Below, in pieces: positions 6,586 through 60,682 of a DNA stretch of 64,000 bases. The stretch lies in IMG/VR virus record IMGVR_UViG_3300035181_002522, positions 100,332-164,331 of that record; one strand, written 5' to 3'. How positions within the stretch are numbered: the first letter of the stretch is position 1; every line of letters starts with the position of its first letter. Source of the DNA: a virus. The notes under the pieces are model-generated. The model was not told the DNA's origin. It made no database searches and saw only the letters and a list, made by a program, of their open reading frames with translations. Position numbers and translations under genes: made by a program.

Positions 6586-7590
6586 ATGCTCATAGCAATA
6601 ACTGGTCGAATGGCGATTGGAAAATCAACCATTATTCAAAATATGTCACTGTCAGTACCGCACGTGAAATTTGACCTTGATAAAGCCGCGCACAAATATA
6701 GTCAAAGTGCTGATATTCAAGAATTTATTGAAAGCAATCGAAGTACTGTTGATCAGACAACCAAAGACATTTGTTGGAAAAATATTTTTAGTGAATCAAA
6801 CAAATATCGGCAGTTTTGCGCGTTATATGAACCATACCTAATAAAGGAAGTTCAGGAAATAATTCATTTTTATCAATTCAGTGACGCCATAAAGATTGTT
6901 GAAGCTTCAGCACTGTACGCATATCCAAAATTACGACAGCTGTTTGATGCTGTTATTGAACTTGGCACTACCGCAGAATCACGAGAAGAAAATATTGAAA
7001 GTCGAGCTGATTTAGCTAATGAACGGTTTAAAGTTGAAATTGCTGACGCGCTGTACGTCTCTTGTGGCACTGACTTTCTTAATATTGGGCTCGGAAAAAA
7101 TCCAAGTATGATTCTGAGTAAGCTAATCACAAAACTCTACAGAAGATTAAATGGACAACATGTTTCTAGAGCGTATTTTTGCGGCTCATTTGAACCAATG
7201 ACTATCGGCCATTATGATATTTACGAGCGGGCCTGTGAAATGTTCGATGAGGTTATCTTTGTAAAAGCTAAGAACCCCAGCAAGTCAGACACTCTCAGAG
7301 AATCGCCTAAATACTTACAGTTAGTTACTACAACCTATATTCCAACGTTGCTCAGAGGTGAGTCTGGTGTCACTAATCTAATACGTGGTGTAAGGACGGA
7401 AAAAGATTATGTCGAAGCGATAGAATGGTTTCGTTCAATTGAAATCATTGTTGGTAGTGGTAAAGTGGAATTGATATTGTTGCCTGCTTCTAAAGAGCTT
7501 GAAAATGTAAGTTCGACCTTTGTTAGAGCTCTTGAAAAATTATCTGAAAACGATGCGAAACGGTTTATTGTGCCTAATCATTTTGCCTAA
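6586..7590 (+). CDS. Dephospho-CoA kinase (CoaE-like) fused to phosphopantetheine adenylyltransferase (CoaD-like)
   Basis: N-terminal IAITGRMAIGKST P-loop; C-terminal YFCGSFEPMTIGH, LIRGVR and VSSTFVR motifs. Confidence 0.8.
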   Translation: MLIAITGRMAIGKSTIIQNMSLSVPHVKFDLDKAAHKYSQSADIQEFIESNRSTVDQTTKDICWKNIFSESNKYRQFCALYEPYLIKEVQEIIHFYQFSDAIKIVEASALYAYPKLRQLFDAVIELGTTAESREENIESRADLANERFKVEIADALYVSCGTDFLNIGLGKNPSMILSKLITKLYRRLNGQHVSRAYFCGSFEPMTIGHYDIYERACEMFDEVIFVKAKNPSKSDTLRESPKYLQLVTTTYIPTLLRGESGVTNLIRGVRTEKDYVEAIEWFRSIEIIVGSGKVELILLPASKELENVSSTFVRALEKLSENDAKRFIVPNHFA

Positions 7591-8028: not shown

Positions 8029-8244
8029 ATGAGTGACAGTATTTTAATGATGTTTGCTATGTTGTTAGCAATTACTTTTATTGCTAACATTGTTTTTTGT
8101 ATAATTGAGCTTCATAATCTATTGAAAGCCAAAGTTCAAAAAGCACGGTTGGAAGTCGATGAACTCTTACATTGTAAAAATAGAGAATTGGGAAAAATAT
8201 TCCTAACTTTTTGGGTCCGGTACGCGAATTGGTTCAGCGGGTAA
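8029..8244 (+). CDS. Hypothetical membrane protein (3' end runs into tRNA-like RNA)
   Basis: GAGG RBS; N-terminal TM segment. Confidence 0.45.
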   Translation: MSDSILMMFAMLLAITFIANIVFCIIELHNLLKAKVQKARLEVDELLHCKNRELGKIFLTFWVRYANWFSG

Positions 8245-8343
8245 AAACGTGGTTTGCATTTTTTGTCAGTAATGACCGCTCGTAAATCGTTATCGTGTCC
8301 GTAAAACACCTGTATGTGGGTTCGAGTCCCACCCGGCCCACCA
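8213..8343 (+). ncRNA. tRNA-ended RNA with conserved ~52-nt insert, copy A
   Basis: Acceptor GGGTCCGG/CCGGCCC-ACCA, D-arm, T-arm GTGGG-TTCGAGT-CCCAC, insert 8243-8294. Confidence 0.8.
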
Positions 8344-8349
8344 AATTAT

Positions 8350-8478
8350 GACACTATAGCTCAGTTGGTAGAGCACCTAAACATCGTTTTCAATTTTTTG
8401 CTAGAAATAGCCGACTAGAAAATGGTTATCGTCATTTGGAGACACTGTATGTGGGTTCGAGTCCCACCTGCCTTCTCA
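8350..8478 (+). ncRNA. tRNA-like RNA with conserved insert, copy B (chimeric acceptor)
   Basis: Canonical D-arm TAGCTCAGTTGGTAGAGC, insert 8379-8430, T-arm identical to copy A; acceptor strands do not pair. Confidence 0.7.
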
Positions 8479-8492
8479 ACTTTATTAAGCAT

Positions 8493-8831
8493 ATGCTAAT
8501 TACTGTTTTAAAATCAAAGCTACATCATGTTACCGTCACTGAAGCTGATATTAATTATGTTGGTTCATGTGCAATTGATGTAGAATTATTAGAAGCTGCT
8601 GAAATTCAAGAAAATGAGCAAATTCACATCTATAATGTGAATAATGGCGAACGTTTTACCACGTATGCCATCGCTTCTGCAATTCCTGGAATTATCTCAG
8701 TTAGGGGTTCCGCCACTAGAAAAGTAGTGGTTGGAGATACCTTGATAATTACCGCTTTTGGCCAAATTACCAAAGGCGAAATTTATAGACCAAATATCGT
8801 TTTTGTTAATAGTAAAAATCTCATAACATAA
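8493..8831 (+). CDS. panD: Aspartate 1-decarboxylase
   Basis: LKSKLHHVTVTEADINYVGSCAID (G-S cleavage site) and NGERFTTYAI; start at ATG 8493. Confidence 0.92.
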   Translation: MLITVLKSKLHHVTVTEADINYVGSCAIDVELLEAAEIQENEQIHIYNVNNGERFTTYAIASAIPGIISVRGSATRKVVVGDTLIITAFGQITKGEIYRPNIVFVNSKNLIT

Positions 8832-8844
8832 AAGAGGAATAGAA

Positions 8845-9609
8845 ATGCCTAAACTACATGAAGTGCTCGCAGTTGAAAAAACTCGTGCAAATGCAGCAAC
8901 AAAATTGCTCGACGAAACTGCAACAAAATTTCGTAAAGAACATTTTTTTGCTGGCCACATCAAAACTTTGAGAATGCTGGCTGATAGCCCTGCGAATGCT
9001 GCTATTGAAGCTGCATCTCGCGACGACAAAGCTTTGCCAACAACCGTTCCAGAAACTCTAGAATACGCTCTGAAATTCTGGGCAGATGCTGAAGACGTTA
9101 CATTCGCAAAAAATCGCACAAATCAAATCGCTAATGCTGATCTTCTGTTTCATGGCGCCGTTTTAGTTCCTAATGTTCCGGTTGACGAGTTGCTCGGCCT
9201 GGAAGTTCGTTTGGAAAAGTTGCGTCATGTTATCGATGCAATGCCAATCTTGGATGCTTCTAGAGAGTGGTCTCTTTCAAGCTCTGGTCGTAAAGGCGAA
9301 TATGTTTCAGTTACTTCCGAAGTAACCTCAAAAACTGAAAAAGTTTCTACTCCGGTTATCTTGTACGAAGCAACCGATCATCATCCCGCGCAAATCCAAG
9401 TTGTTAATACCGACAAAGTCGTTGGTACCTTTACCAAACTGTTAATCTCTGGTGCTGCATCTTCAAAACAAAAAGCAGATGCGATTTCCACCATTGACGA
9501 ATTGCTGGTAGAAGTAAAACAAGCACGTCAGCGTGCTAACAGCGTTGAAATCATCAACGAAAAAATCGGTTCAACCATCACCGATCTAATTTTGGCAGCG
9601 TTTAAATAA
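8845..9609 (+). CDS. Uncharacterised helical protein of a widespread family
   Basis: KLHEVLAVEK...VPVDELLGLE...LYEATDHHPAQI...VKQARQRAN pattern; GAGG RBS; codon usage of a highly expressed gene. Confidence 0.8.
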   Translation: MPKLHEVLAVEKTRANAATKLLDETATKFRKEHFFAGHIKTLRMLADSPANAAIEAASRDDKALPTTVPETLEYALKFWADAEDVTFAKNRTNQIANADLLFHGAVLVPNVPVDELLGLEVRLEKLRHVIDAMPILDASREWSLSSSGRKGEYVSVTSEVTSKTEKVSTPVILYEATDHHPAQIQVVNTDKVVGTFTKLLISGAASSKQKADAISTIDELLVEVKQARQRANSVEIINEKIGSTITDLILAAFK

Positions 9610-9830
9610 TGAAAGAGCTATCGTTACCGCAAGGAACTAAAATTCTCTGCGGTAACGGGCATTTAGTTGCTGTATTGAATAGGTCTCTTTATCGAGGAGA
9701 CACTGATTACAGTGATGCTTTTGATTATGCTGAAGGTCAAATGCTTCCAACAAAAGGTCAATTATGTCCACTTCATTGTCATTGTGGAAGTGTATGGCTT
9801 GACAAATTTAAATGCGTTAAAATTGAATAA
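9609..9830 (+). CDS. Small Cys-rich protein
   Basis: CGNGH...CHCGS possible metal ligands; start overlaps previous stop. Confidence 0.6.
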   Translation: MKELSLPQGTKILCGNGHLVAVLNRSLYRGDTDYSDAFDYAEGQMLPTKGQLCPLHCHCGSVWLDKFKCVKIE

Positions 9831-9880
9831 AACAGTTTCTTTTTGAATGCTATTGTGATAATATAGCTTCAAGTTAAAAG

Positions 9881-10083
9881 TTTGAGCCATCCTTATAATT
9901 ATTTTTATTTTGAAATTGCGTTAAATTGCCTGCTGGTTCGAGTCCAGCTCCACATACAGAGAGCTTAATAAGTTTTCTGTATGTGGATAGGAGAATTGGT
10001 ATATCCCAAGATCTTTAAGAACTCATATGGAGTCGATCTTGTGTAATTTAAAGTGAGCCTTTTTAATCTTCGTATCGCTCAAC
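9881..10083 (+). ncRNA. Circularly permuted tRNA-mimic RNA 1 (YrlA-like architecture)
   Basis: T-arm 9932-9948, 18-bp closed acceptor-like hairpin 9949-9987, then D-arm; termini TTGAGC/GCTCAA pair. Confidence 0.75.
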
Positions 10084-10101
10084 ATACGTAGACTAGAAGT
10101 A

Positions 10102-10281
10102 AAGTTTTAACAACAAATACGGTCTTCTCATTCATTAAATGAGAACTGGAAGTCGCGGGTTCAAATCCCGTCCCGACGGCAATTGATTTTAGAAATAGAG
10201 TTAATTGCCGTCGGGTAGCTCAGTGGTTAGAGTGCCAGTAAAATAACATCGTCATCATCGTAGGTTGTTTGATTAAAACTT
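10102..10281 (+). ncRNA. Circularly permuted tRNA-mimic RNA 2 (YrlA-like architecture)
   Basis: T-arm 10155-10171, 20-bp acceptor-like hairpin closed by GAAA 10172-10215, D-arm TAGCTCAGTGGTTAGAGT; ACTGG/CCAGT helix; termini AAGTTTTAA/TTAAAACTT pair. Confidence 0.82.
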
Positions 10282-10513
10282 GAAAGAATATCATTCTTAA
10301 TGCCCGCCTAGAATATAGGAAATTTGGACTTTGCGGGCATTCTATAAAAGAGCTTTTAACTGAAAGTTTTTTTATAGAATGATAACATTAAGGATATAAT
10401 ATGTCAATATTACGAATTGCTACAGCACTTATATAAGTGCTGTATGGTTTGATGGCATACATTTTTAATATTGACGTTAAGAAACAAGCTGAAAAAGAAG
10501 AGAAAAAATAATT

Positions 10514-10639
10514 GCCGGTATAGTTTAATGGTAGAACTGCCAAAAAACATCGTTTACATTTTTTGTTAGCAATAACCGCTAGTAAATGGTTATCCATTCC
10601 AAGGGGAAGATCGTGGTTCGATTCCACGTGCCGGCTCCA
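10514..10639 (+). ncRNA. tRNA-ended RNA with conserved insert, copy C (Gly-like)
   Basis: Acceptor GCCGGTA/TGCCGGC-TCCA; insert 10542-10594; ATTCCAA loop; T-arm CGTGG-TTCGATT-CCACG. Confidence 0.82.
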
Positions 10640-11972: not shown

Positions 11973-12090
11973 GGGATAGTGACGGAATTGGTATACGTAC
12001 AAGACTTTTTCAAGAACTTGAAACTATTCAAGTTCTTCTGAAAATCTTGCGGCTTCGGCCATGTGGGTTCGAGTCCCACCTATCCCACCA
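11973..12090 (+). tRNA. tRNA-Leu with 33-nt hairpin insertion in the anticodon loop
   Basis: Acceptor GGGATAG/CTATCCC-ACCA, Leu-type D-loop and variable arm GGCTTCGGCC; 40 nt between CAAGA and TCTTG. Confidence 0.85.
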
Positions 12091-12647
12091 AATTTATAAT
12101 GCATTTACGACAAAACCAAACATTTTAGAGTTAATAAACTCTAACAGAGATCATTTACGTCAATTAGAAAAGTTTTCTATTGGCGTTTCTGTTGTTATAA
12201 TTGTCAGTGAAGATGAATACACTCCATCTATTCGTACTGCTATTGGTCATGTTATCGGATTTGCTCCAGGTCGATTGACCATTGGAGATGACATTAGAGT
12301 AATTGTTCAAACTGCAGCTGGTAGTAAACGTTCAATAACTCCAGAAAATTTAATGTTGCTGAGTGAAACATGAACATTATTCCACAACCACCACTCACGA
12401 GAATAATTAGAGAAGGTAGCACTAGGTTTTGTCCTTTTTTGCGGAAGTAGCTTAGTGATAAATGTTCTTGGAAAATCACAAGGATGTTTATAACCAGAGT
12501 GTCATAACTTCCACCAATTGTCTGGTAGAGCAGTTGAGGCATTAAGTACTATTGAACAAGTTAAGCAGATTAAAGCAGATTATGATGTTAGTCTTAATGA
12601 AGCTAAGCGTATTTTTGCATGCCTTATTGAATATGTTGTTCAGAAAT

Positions 12648-12718
12648 GACCTCTAATTGGTTTACATTGAGATTCTAAAACTCATTGTGTCAGAGTTCAA
12701 CTCTCTGAGACGTCACCA
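12648..12718 (+). tRNA. Degenerate tRNA with CTA (amber) anticodon
   Basis: TGAGA-TTCTAAA-ACTCA arm, T-arm CAGAG-TTCAACT-CTCTG, ACCA end; D-arm partly deleted. Confidence 0.5.
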
Positions 12719-13101
12719 AAATGTCACAATCAAAACAAGAATTAATTAGCCAGCTTCAACAACTTATTGATAGTTGGACTGCGGAATTAGAATCGTTAGA
12801 TGATGGCGGCAAAAGTAAAGAATTTGAACGCTTAAGAGAATTGTTAAATGCAAATTACGACAATAAAAGCTAAATCTCGTAAACTAGCTTGCAGATTGGA
12901 CTATTGAATTAATTGAACAAGTTCTTGAACAAGAATTGCTAGTGGAAAGTGAATTAAGAGAGAACCTTGCTGAGGAAATTAAACAAGAAATTGATAATCA
13001 CATTATTGACACTATCATTTTACGAGCTGAATATGAAAGAGTTAAACATCTTACTAAAGATTGTGATAATATAAAATCTTCTTAAATTATTCGAGAATCA
13101 A

Positions 13102-14194: not shown

Positions 14195-14311
14195 GTAGTA
14201 GGATGTTACCGAATCCACCGGTACATAATAGTGGACCAATAATTCTACTATGATATAATTTTAGAATAATTGTATTGAAAATGTGATATAATTATATCAT
14301 AATAGAATTTT

Positions 14312-14369
14312 AGGACTATAACTCAGCTGGTTAGAGCACTCGCCTGATAAGTGGTGGGTCAGTGGTCCA
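14312..14369 (+). pseudogene. Truncated tRNA-Ile(GAT)
   Basis: D-arm and CTGATAA loop present; T-loop and 3' acceptor missing. Confidence 0.65.
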
Positions 14370-14435
14370 TTGTTTACAAAATTAGGTATTGATATTTTTA
14401 CTTTTTCAAACGGAAAAATATAAAGAGTCCAAAGT

Positions 14436-17684: not shown

Positions 17685-18210
17685 GTCTTATTAGTTCTGG
17701 TATGGACAAAACGAAAACCGAAAGGCTTTATTGATCACTTAGCTGAGTAGGATGCAGATAGCCTAGTTGAAAATTTAATAATCGTGAGTGTTAAATTAGT
17801 AAGTTAGATTTATCTCGAAAATGTCTCCCTCTGTGGCAGAGGGAGAGTGCTCAGGTGAGTTAGTGGAACTAATAAGATTTGGACAGTTAAAATGGGTAAA
17901 AAACTGTTGCCGTTTTAAATGCTCGGGAATGGTTATAAATTTGCAAATTAGATGTTTGCTTCGTCGCAAAAAGCTTCGAAATGGAGCTAATAAATAAATG
18001 TATAAATACATCATATTGATGTATAATAGTTTAAAAGTAAAAACCGCTGTTAATGGGTTATCATGATTAGATATAAACCCCATAAACCTTTTTTGTTTTT
18101 ACTTTAACAAGTTTTGAAGAACCATTCAATCTTGGTTATCCGATATAAAATCAGACTAATTCCAAGATTATCATTTTGTTTTACAATTATTTCCTATGGG
18201 GAATATTAAG

Positions 18211-58534: not shown

Positions 58535-59686
58535 ATGACAGCAGTCGATTTTGGCAGCATTTTAAGTGGAGCAGGCGTTAACGCTCAGCAGCAGGTGTTT
58601 GATTCATTTGGGTTGGCAGTTGATCAATTCACTAATCGGTCTTTATCTGATTTTGTTGGTGGAGTGTCTGGTTCAAATGAAGGAGCCAACCCGTATATAC
58701 CTGGCGAATGGAATGGAACTAATTATGCTGAAGATTTAATCAAATATCAGCCGAAACATCACTTTATGTTTCGTGTTCTATTTGATGTTGACCCAGAATT
58801 TTCAAATTTGGTTCAAGGTCGTAAAGATGTTTTTCAATATGTCATTAAAAAAATTGGAAGACCAAAAATTAGCTTTGAGTATGAGCCTGTAAATTATTAC
58901 AATTTTAAAACACAGGTATTAAAGACAATTGATTTCGATCCAATCGATATTACCATGATTGATGATATTCAAGACACCTTTCATAACTTTGTAAGAACTT
59001 TCTTGATGTCACATTCGCCTATCGCAAGGTCTTGGAATAATAGTCAAAGTGTTAGCCAATTAGAAGAAGGTGGTTTCAATTTTTCAGATGCACCAAATGC
59101 TGGGCAAGATAGTGCTCTAAGAGGTGTGTTAGCTGGTGGTAAAATTAATCCGCTAAAATCAATTAGGTTGATTCAATATTTTGGACATGGTTCAGCTCAA
59201 AATACATTTGTATTTGTTAATCCAAAGATTTTAGACATCTCATACGATGAGGTTCACCATGAAAATGGTGAGCCAAACCATGCTTCAATTAGGTTTGATT
59301 ATGATGCTCTTTATATCGAAAATGCTGAACAAGCATATGGGAGATCACCATATGCTGTACCTGGTAGAGATATGTTCACTGGTATTACAAATGATTATAT
59401 TAGCAATGGAGACCCTTATTTTGATGGTTCATTAGGAGGGGGGTTAAGCTCGCTGTTTGGTGGCTTAAGAAGTTTAGGCGGTAATATTGCATCAACGATA
59501 TCGTCTCAAGCATTAAGTGGAGTATCAAACCCATATTTAAATAGAGCTTTAGGAAATATAAGCAGAAATACAATTTATAGCACAACGACATCATCAAGAA
59601 ATACTCTGTTTAGTACAATTAGCGGACCTGGTGTCAACTATAATGTCATCAATTCTAACAGCAATCCAATAACAATAGAGAATTAA
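58535..59686 (+). CDS. Tube-fold baseplate protein (gp48/gp54-like)
   Basis: PKHHFMFRVLF, RPKISFE...YYN, FVNPKI, IRFDYD; follows the tube gene. Confidence 0.7.
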   Translation: MTAVDFGSILSGAGVNAQQQVFDSFGLAVDQFTNRSLSDFVGGVSGSNEGANPYIPGEWNGTNYAEDLIKYQPKHHFMFRVLFDVDPEFSNLVQGRKDVFQYVIKKIGRPKISFEYEPVNYYNFKTQVLKTIDFDPIDITMIDDIQDTFHNFVRTFLMSHSPIARSWNNSQSVSQLEEGGFNFSDAPNAGQDSALRGVLAGGKINPLKSIRLIQYFGHGSAQNTFVFVNPKILDISYDEVHHENGEPNHASIRFDYDALYIENAEQAYGRSPYAVPGRDMFTGITNDYISNGDPYFDGSLGGGLSSLFGGLRSLGGNIASTISSQALSGVSNPYLNRALGNISRNTIYSTTTSSRNTLFSTISGPGVNYNVINSNSNPITIEN

Positions 59687-59687
59687 G

Positions 59688-60224
59688 ATGGCAAAAGGAA
59701 GATTTGTCCCAAAACACCCAGAAAAATATTTGGGAAATCCAAACAATATCATATTCAGAAGCTCTTGGGAGCTCTCATGTTGTAAATTTTTTGATAGCTC
59801 GAACGCCGTAACTCGTTGGGCTTCTGAAGAAATTGCGATACCATATGTCAGTCCGTTAGATGCCAGAATACATCGCTACTTTCCAGATTTTATCGCTAAG
59901 ATAACCGATTCTAGTGGAACGACCGACACTTGGTTAATTGAGGTTAAACCACTTCATCAAACTGATATGAAATATGCTAAAAATGTTCAACAAAAGATGG
60001 AGGTGGCAAAAAATGAAGCAAAGTGGAAAGCAGCAACAAACTTTGCTGCTTTAAATAATATGAAATTTAAAGTGCTTACTGAATTAGACATTTACGCTTT
60101 AGACCCTGATAGAGGAAAAGTAAAGCGAGCAAAACCTAGTAATGCGGCAAAAATTAAAGCTAGGAAGCCAAGAGCTAAAACGATAAAATCAACTACGGTT
60201 AGACCCAAGGAGAGTAAAAAATGA
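59688..60224 (+). CDS. Head completion nuclease (T4 gp4 / TnsA-like)
   Basis: GRFVPKHPEKYLG..IIFRSSWE; WASEEIAIPY; YFPDF; IEVKP; NEAKWKAA. Confidence 0.93.
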   Translation: MAKGRFVPKHPEKYLGNPNNIIFRSSWELSCCKFFDSSNAVTRWASEEIAIPYVSPLDARIHRYFPDFIAKITDSSGTTDTWLIEVKPLHQTDMKYAKNVQQKMEVAKNEAKWKAATNFAALNNMKFKVLTELDIYALDPDRGKVKRAKPSNAAKIKARKPRAKTIKSTTVRPKESKK

Positions 60225-60682
60225 CAACACTGACACACCCATTAGAAACTGTGTTTAATATAGCGCCAGGTTCAACAAAAAATTTACCTGCAGAGTATGA
60301 ATCCCAAAATCTTGCAGAATATACTGAGATTCCTGCTGAGGTAGTTGCCCAGGACCATAAGGATGACGCTGAGGACATTGATATTAATGATAAGATAGAA
60401 ACCATTTATGAATTTGCATTGACTGCCTATGAGAACCAGACCGCCTTTGCCGAGATAGCAGAACCACGCTATGCTGCTCGTAATGCTGAAGTAGCAGCTC
60501 AATACTTAAATGCAGCGTTAAGTGCGGTGGCATTGAAGTCAAGAAACAAGAGTGATAAGCGTAAAAGCAAGCAGTTTATTCCGTTTAACACGAACATCTC
60601 AAATAGCAATGTAGTTGTTACTGATCGAAACAGTATCATGCAAATGATCGCTGAAAAGAAAAAAATGCAAGAAGGTTCATAA
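60221..60682 (+). CDS. Probable terminase small subunit (T4 gp16-like)
   Basis: EPRYAARNAEVAAQYLNAA and NSNVVVTDRNSI; position after gp4. Confidence 0.55.
   Translation: MTTLTHPLETVFNIAPGSTKNLPAEYESQNLAEYTEIPAEVVAQDHKDDAEDIDINDKIETIYEFALTAYENQTAFAEIAEPRYAARNAEVAAQYLNAALSAVALKSRNKSDKRKSKQFIPFNTNISNSNVVVTDRNSIMQMIAEKKKMQEGS

Follow-up and report, generated by a model that had tools for sequence, protein, structure and literature searches.

Candidate Y RNAs in tRNA order: a covarying Ro60-type module in three tRNA-like genes of a phage

Three phage genes that resemble transfer RNA (tRNA) genes, here named c1, c2 and c3, carry a module of 52-53 nt between the D arm and the anticodon-like hairpin, which raises the question whether this module is excised from the RNA or kept in it, and what it binds. 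The genes lie within positions 8213-10639 of a 64,000-nucleotide stretch of DNA (the window), namely bases 100332-164331 of the 164-kb IMG/VR phage record IMGVR_UViG_3300035181_002522. The record has a G+C content of 35.6%, and CheckV estimates it to be ~46% complete. As they stand, all three genes are missed by ARAGORN. The initial annotation had described the module as a shared insert with compensatory changes that reproduces, in permuted form, the bulged-C helix bound by Ro60 in Y RNAs. This work confirms the shared, covarying module in c1-c3 and supports its reading as a putative permuted Ro60-type helix. We consider it probable, from sequence comparisons, that c1-c3 are Y RNAs built in tRNA order, in which the module is stably kept as an arm and would be bound by Ro60.

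Anatomy and covariation of the module

From 5' to 3', the module is composed of an A-rich leader (ending in AAC and two further bases), a 7-bp outer stem, a U-run, a 4-bp helix capped by a GNRA loop, an unpaired C, a G with two to four bases, the return strand of the outer stem and GTTATC; a G.U pair stands beside the bulged C. T-loop matches at 8319, 8454 and 10615 accompany tRNA-like D and T arms in all three genes, which, like their modules, lie on the plus strand.

The first gene, c1 (8213-8343), has a 7-bp acceptor stem with one C-C mismatch, a discriminator A and an encoded CCA. Its anticodon-like loop is CCGTAAA (GUA, with C at position 33), it is without a long variable arm, and ARAGORN calls a tRNA-Tyr(gta) when the module is deleted in silico. 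The c1 module (8243-8294) comprises the leader (8243-8250), the outer stem (8251-8257 with 8282-8288), the U-run (8259-8264), a hairpin with a GTAA loop (8265-8276), the bulged C (8277), G (8278) and GTTATC (8289-8294); in isolation its predicted fold matches the drawn structure. The tRNA-like body of c2 (8350-8475) has good D and T arms, no acceptor pairing (its ends cannot pair) and an anticodon-like hairpin with a 3-bp stem and the loop ATTTGGA. It yields a partial Rfam tRNA match of 22 bits, and ARAGORN never calls a tRNA after module removal. Its module (8378-8430) is divided into leader (8378-8384), outer stem (8385-8391 with 8418-8424), U-run (8394-8399), hairpin with a GAAA loop (8400-8411), bulged C (8412), GA (8413-8414) and GTTATC (8425-8430). 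The third gene, c3 (10514-10639), combines a perfect acceptor stem with a discriminator U, an encoded CCA and the loop ATTCCAA (UCC), and matches the Rfam tRNA family at 40.6 bits (E 2e-06) with a 69-nt insertion at the anticodon-arm site. With the arm disregarded, c3 fits the features of a decoding tRNA (UCC, discriminator U). Here the module (10542-10594) spans leader (10542-10550), outer stem (10551-10557 with 10582-10588), U-run (10559-10564), hairpin with a GCAA loop (10565-10576), bulged C (10577), G (10578) and GTTATC (10589-10594). Read at these exact coordinates, the three GNRA hairpins, the outer stems, the U-run and GTTATC stand where they had initially been placed. Additionally, an open reading frame (ORF) of 71 aa with a hydrophobic N-terminus (8029-8244, plus strand) reaches into the 5' half of c1 and terminates within the leader of the module; this overlap may be accidental.

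The module leaves the 5' strand of the anticodon stem after its first 1-3 nt, and the remainder of that strand comes after the module; the junction position relative to GTTATC varies by 1-3 nt among copies. In c1, one or two G residues 5' of the module and GTGT 3' of it pair with ACACC, and in c3 the GCC after the D arm and two C residues at or after the end of GTTATC can pair with GGGGA past the loop. Homologous loci are split in the same place: CCG and GC pair with GCCGG in L010, which is Tyr-like with a long variable arm; TCT and GC pair with GCGGA, and CTG and GG with CCCAG, in L143/L021; and CG and GCA pair with TGCCG in L276.

The module pattern was counted against its chance expectation in the window, where two exact matches were found against 0.01 expected; c2 is off by one extra base. 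A regular expression scan over the whole 164-kb record returned exactly three copies, those of c1-c3, without target-site repeats. A covariance model (R1), built from c1-c3 and three metagenomic homologues, was run on extracted loci, from which it retrieved 25 and then 73 matches; whole-genome runs (7-10-Mb genomes) overlooked known copies. R1 scores the modules of c1, c2 and c3 at 73.5, 70.8 and 75.5 bits, respectively. Among 23 distinct homologues, 97.9% of the cells at paired positions are paired, compared to 73% in shuffled alignments and 25-52% with slid partners, and 11 of the 12 pairs change on both sides. Among 67 distinct homologues the corresponding values are 94.8%, 80%, 31-66% and 10 of 12 pairs, which bears out the covariation initially noted in the three copies. 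None of the shuffles attained the observed values; since the alignments were fitted to R1, the pairing is somewhat inflated, but the slid and shuffled controls are nonetheless far lower. The bulged position is C in 67/67 homologue rows, the flanking U.G pair is kept in 65/66, and the GNRA positions and GTTATC are nearly invariant across the 67 homologues. The folding energy of the isolated modules (z -0.6 to -1.9) is not significant, so that support for the module comes from covariation and not from thermodynamics; the modules, c1 and c2 fold no better than shuffles, and the fold of the whole c3 gene reaches z = -3.0.

The phage Ro60 gene, its Y RNAs and homologous loci

The window itself contains no Ro60 gene, as the initial annotation had stated, and the search of the phage for a TROVE domain that it had proposed was successful on the same record outside the window. 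An intact ORF of 530 aa (record positions 59069-60661, minus strand), with scores of 140 bits for TROVE and 157.7 bits for vWA_Ro60, encodes the phage Ro60 ~48 kb upstream of c1. Immediately upstream of this gene lies an RNA with the parts of the module in ordinary Y-RNA order. Its 5' part consists of a terminal helix ending in GC, an unpaired C, GA, one base, GAAAUUG and GUUAUC, and its 3' part, far downstream, of CGAUUUC, five bases and the UU-GC that closes the terminal helix. The copy nearest to this RNA is c2, which reads CGUUUUC ... UU-GCUA-GAAA-UAGC-C-GA ... GAAAAUG-GUUAUC: the 7-bp stem GAAAUUG/CGAUUUC of the Ro60-adjacent RNA has its compensated counterpart CGUUUUC/GAAAAUG in c2, and both are then followed by GUUAUC. 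A module stem identical to that of the Ro60-adjacent RNA (CGAUUUC/GAAAUUG) is found in locus L116. Because the Ro60-adjacent RNA has the same elements in ordinary order, the module is its circular permutation; put structurally, the module is, as far as sequence comparison goes, a Y RNA stem whose open end has been capped by a tetraloop and whose far end has been opened. This Ro60-adjacent Y RNA, with the same parts unpermuted, and the linkage to Ro60 in other genomes described below support the permuted bulged-C helix initially proposed.

All three copies have the helix, the bulged C and the G.U pair, in a strand order that is permuted relative to Y RNAs. Known Ro60 contacts lie on the strand GGUCCGA (frog Ro60), and the bacterial motif is GNCGAAN0-1G (Chen 2014, PMC4201824); a CGAA motif also occurs in the Y-like RNAs of a Thermus phage that bind the phage Ro60 (PMC12135203). 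The corresponding strands are GCCGAAUG in cyanobacterial modules, GGUCCGC in L021, AGCCGA in c2 and ACCGC in c1 and c3, and the putative contact strand of the module agrees with GGUCCGA and GNCGAAN0-1G. A small Y-RNA-like gene in ordinary order was identified within the window (18030-18114, plus strand), with an 11-bp terminal helix, bulged C, GC, second stem and UUAUC. It was found as a pattern match, folds at z = -2.7 and has a TATAAT-like box just upstream. Because this gene uses CCGC, the variant of c1 and c3 occurs in an unpermuted Y-like RNA too.

Both layouts occur side by side on another phage contig, L276, the Ro60 of which is ~44% identical to that of this phage. Within ~430 nt upstream of that Ro60 gene stand three canonical Y RNAs, reading GGGC-C-GA ... 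GGUUAUC ... UUGCCC, and one tRNA-Tyr-like gene with the permuted module, the latter ~230 nt upstream of Ro60. Arrays of three to four canonical Y RNAs precede the phage Ro60 genes at 6912-7318 of L276 and at 9620-9960 of L275; in these arrays GGUUAUC (or AUUAUC) directly follows the second stem, and some members have a T-loop-like GGTTCGACTCC. Weak model matches at 15.7-15.9 kb of L275, which fall inside coding sequence, were discounted.

In metagenome and genome collections, scans with the exact pattern gave mostly chance matches. Phage-like contigs and three cyanobacteria made up the matches that had both a complementary hairpin and a T loop nearby, and in the three cyanobacteria arrays of three to four module-bearing tRNA-like genes immediately precede Ro60 on the same strand. 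Of 401 sampled cyanobacterial genomes, 31 contained the pattern, compared to 6 for the reversed control, with arrays of up to six copies. Thirty cyanobacterial loci were extracted, 23 of which have a valid hairpin; a Ro60 ORF lies directly downstream on the same strand in 21 of these 23, starting ~80-800 nt 3' of the module, and in none of the seven chance matches without a hairpin (0/7). In the remaining loci extracted by pattern, Ro60 is present only beside true modules. BLAST of the region against 50,697 phage records returned only a 63-nt tRNA-like match.

In the cyanobacterial Ro60 loci (L277-L306 and L150/L152/L177), a bare form of the module hairpin overlaps the Shine-Dalgarno sequence of the Ro60 mRNA, in 19/21 loci by eye and in 11 by a strict regular expression. 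This hairpin (U-run, helix, GNRA loop, helix, C, then GGGAG) lies within 70 nt before the Ro60 start codon, and its stems are compensated. Its position at the ribosome-binding site points to a putative Ro60 site for translational autoregulation.

Retained arm, excised intron or another docking site

We propose the following course for c1-c3. The three genes are probably co-transcribed with the phage tRNA cluster; c1 and c3 would then be trimmed like tRNAs to yield a free acceptor end with the encoded CCA, and the D/T elbow would fold. From the anticodon stem an arm would depart, consisting of the leader, the 7-bp stem, a U-rich asymmetric loop, the G.U pair with the bulged C and the GNRA-capped 4-bp helix, to rejoin the rest of the anticodon stem via GUUAUC. 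Such an arm would be the Ro60-docking stem of the phage's own Y RNA in circularly permuted form: the helix that bears the ends of an ordinary Y RNA would now be capped by a tetraloop, and the RNA ends would have moved to the acceptor stem. The ring of the phage Ro60 would bind the bulged helix of the arm, and the tRNA body may act as a scaffold that resists nucleases and provide a handle to a partner that recognises tRNA, in analogy to the Y RNAs by which Ro60 is tethered to PNPase. The analysis demonstrates the anatomy, the covariation, the homology to Ro60-adjacent Y RNAs and the genomic linkage to Ro60; that Ro60 binds the arm, that the mature RNA retains it and which partner it has is what we infer.

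Several observations weigh against this proposal. The three genes do not adjoin Ro60 but lie ~48 kb away in a tRNA cluster, which sets them apart from classical Y RNA genes. The strand of c1 and c3 is CCGC instead of the CGAA or CCGA of the published motifs. Rfam YrlA (RF02553) does not match c1-c3 as units. When the flanks of the module are joined, 28 of 54 homologues obtain an anticodon stem of 5 bp without mismatch and a 7-nt loop that has U33 and R37, and the anticodon stems are compensated between species (CGC/GCG versus CGA/TCG); an excisable intron would look alike. An extra helix on the anticodon stem probably blocks use by the ribosome, so that the retained anticodon-like loops need another cause.

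The last points lead to the alternative that the module is a small tRNA intron of a new kind, whose excision might be chaperoned by Ro60, with an RNA ligase rejoining the ends, and would give a functional tRNA-Tyr-like RNA and tRNA-Gly. Removal of the module restores the anticodon stem of c1 (GGTGT/ACACC) and largely that of c3, and leaves a perfect stem in L010, L143 (Ile UAU, Val UAC), L276 (Tyr) and many cyanobacterial copies, while the 28 homologues that become canonical have their T arm at the correct distance. ARAGORN calls a tRNA for both c1 and c3 after module deletion. A link of the ligase RtcB to Ro60 loci is, moreover, reported for some bacteria (PMC7790460). The outcome of the joining test is weak, however, as an unrelated 5' flank used as control still gave 12/54 canonical arms. 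Definition of the splice site by module deletion and ARAGORN was rejected, as many different junctions were accepted.

Group I introns in tRNA genes measure ~200 nt or more, contain a catalytic core and are located in the anticodon loop. The module, with 52 nt, is far below that size, sits in the stem and not in the loop, and matches no Rfam intron family; a bulge-helix-bulge was not seen on inspection, and between copies the junction moves by 1-3 nt against GTTATC. Neither RtcB (PF01139) nor the splicing endonuclease (PF01974) was found in the 164-kb record, which represents ~46% of the genome. Excision would not produce a usable tRNA from c2, which is without an acceptor stem, yet its module is fully compensated; c1 has C33, and the long variable arm found in the real tRNA-Tyr of the phage is missing from it. 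Canonical genes for tRNA-Gly(UCC) and tRNA-Tyr(GUA) are already present in the phage. The three tandem copies of L116 have loops of 8 nt or 10 nt or no anticodon loop and would likewise fail to yield a usable tRNA, and in some cyanobacterial copies the module substitutes for the loop or is permuted differently. Finally, canonical Y RNAs contain this element as a stable part, and because GUUAUC and the A-rich leader both flank the stem there, they are not splice signals. On balance, we regard excision as an intron as unlikely.

A variant of this idea would keep Ro60 at the centre: the arm would be removable, with Ro60 holding the halves of a precursor tRNA while nucleases and an RNA ligase excise it, thereby timing when the tRNA becomes usable. 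We think this rather improbable. If true, the removable arm would represent protein-guided tRNA splicing in phages and cyanobacteria and would supply a substrate for the long-noted link between Ro60 and RtcB.

The module may instead dock another protein, such as a host factor or the DUF7873 protein encoded nearby, with a convergent likeness to the Ro60 helix. This would accommodate the 48 kb between the genes and Ro60, their position flanking the DUF7873 gene and the deviation of c1 and c3 from CGAA. Homologues of DUF7873, PanD and ORF73 are, however, absent near the other extracted module loci, whereas Ro60 stands beside the module in 21 cyanobacterial loci and in L276, and the module is homologous in sequence to the Ro60-adjacent Y RNA of the same phage; docking of a different protein is thus quite improbable. 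Decaying tRNA pseudogenes with a functionless repeated or mobile insert, as the missing acceptor stem of c2 and several odd or truncated tRNA-like pieces in the region might suggest, are very improbable in view of compensatory changes in 10-11 of 12 pairs, unpaired positions that are invariant from phages to cyanobacteria, only three copies in the record without target-site repeats, and tRNA bodies that are mutually only 62-68% alike.

Relation to known RNAs and to neighbouring genes

To our knowledge, bacterial Y RNAs mimic tRNAs, their acceptor stems being closed, and no partner is known for the tRNA-like half. The predicted layout of c1-c3, in which the acceptor ends are free, is most likely the reverse of that described until now for bacterial Y RNAs. 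In the literature searched, no description of a tRNA-order Y RNA layout was found, and in Rfam no family other than tRNA matches the c1-c3 genes.

The closest comparison is with YrlA (RF02553; PMC4201824; 10.1101/312249), which likewise combines a bulged stem for Ro60 binding with a tRNA-like D/T elbow, attaches the Ro60 stem at the position of the anticodon stem and is encoded in genomes with Ro60, including phages. The ends of YrlA lie in the Ro60 stem and its acceptor stem is closed by a loop, without a free CCA and without an anticodon loop, whereas c1 and c3 have an open acceptor stem with an encoded CCA, and in c1-c3 a GNRA loop caps the Ro60 helix, with the anticodon-like hairpin retained. 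In the window no match to RF02553 reaches the gathering score (69 bits); the scores of 29 bits at 10147-10237 and 22 bits at 8299-8396 represent other readings. The processed Ro60-bound tRNA-like RNA of the 2014 report, with its open 7-bp acceptor stem and CCA tail, has the same final architecture as proposed here. It consists of two pieces derived from a cleaved closed acceptor loop, whereas c1-c3 would be single chains with a permuted gene order. Few YrlA RNAs were reported in cyanobacteria, and matches over annotated tRNA genes in tandem were removed (Chen et al. 2014, PMC4201824), which may explain why the arrays described here went unreported.

Yrn1 of Deinococcus radiodurans and metazoan Y RNAs share both strands of the bulged helix (GGUCCGA-type and UUG) with the module, and the D, anticodon-like and T arms of Yrn1 likewise follow one another as in a tRNA. 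The acceptor stem of Yrn1 is replaced by the Ro60 stem, which holds the RNA ends, whereas in c1-c3 the Ro60 stem would be added to the anticodon stem as a further arm. Thermus phage phiLo resembles the present phage in encoding a Ro60 together with Y-like RNAs, Yrl1 and Yrl2, that have a CGAA-type motif (PMC12135203). Binding of these RNAs by Ro60 and a complex with the host PNPase have been demonstrated (PMC12135203). Yrl1 and Yrl2, in contrast, are simple stem-bulge-stem RNAs adjoining the gene, neither tRNA-shaped nor permuted. With tRNA introns (bacterial group I, archaeal bulge-helix-bulge) the module shares its location in the anticodon arm and flanks that can complete the stem; it differs in size, in its position in the 5' strand of the stem, in the lack of a group I core or bulge-helix-bulge and in its homology to a stable Ro60-binding stem.

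If c1-c3 are indeed tRNA-order Y RNAs, this second wiring, with its free CCA and often a canonical anticodon loop, would broaden the partner candidates to synthetases, EF-Tu, anticodon nucleases and repair enzymes. The arrays upstream of cyanobacterial Ro60 genes are candidate Y RNAs for cyanobacteria. The set carried by this giant phage, comprising Ro60, two Y RNAs (one large, one small) and, within the tRNA cluster, three putative tRNA-order Y RNAs, points to a role of Ro60 in a contest over tRNA during infection, and the invariant bulged C and G.U pair open a simple mutational test.

The neighbouring genes on the plus strand (6586-7590, 8493-8831 and 8845-9609) belong to the coenzyme A pathway (CoaE with a cytidylyltransferase-like part; PanD, 132.8 bits) and to DUF7873 (233 bits), the last being encoded between c2 and c3. 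Two circularly permuted tRNA mimics, each with a T arm, a long closed acceptor stem and a D arm, are located at 9930-10030 and 10147-10260 (plus strand). The latter scores 29 bits against Rfam YrlA (gathering score 69), and its 3' tail starts with an A-rich leader of the module type (...AACATCG); a Ro60 helix is not evident in it. A further tRNA-like gene at 11973-12087 (plus strand; Rfam tRNA 45.9 bits), also missed by ARAGORN, has a long variable arm and a different insert, namely a perfect 11-bp hairpin within the anticodon loop. Two odd tRNA-like pieces follow at 12640-12720 and 14310-14370 (plus strand): one is without a D arm and has a loop containing CUA, and the other combines a tRNA-Ile(GAU)-like 5' part with a degenerate T arm.

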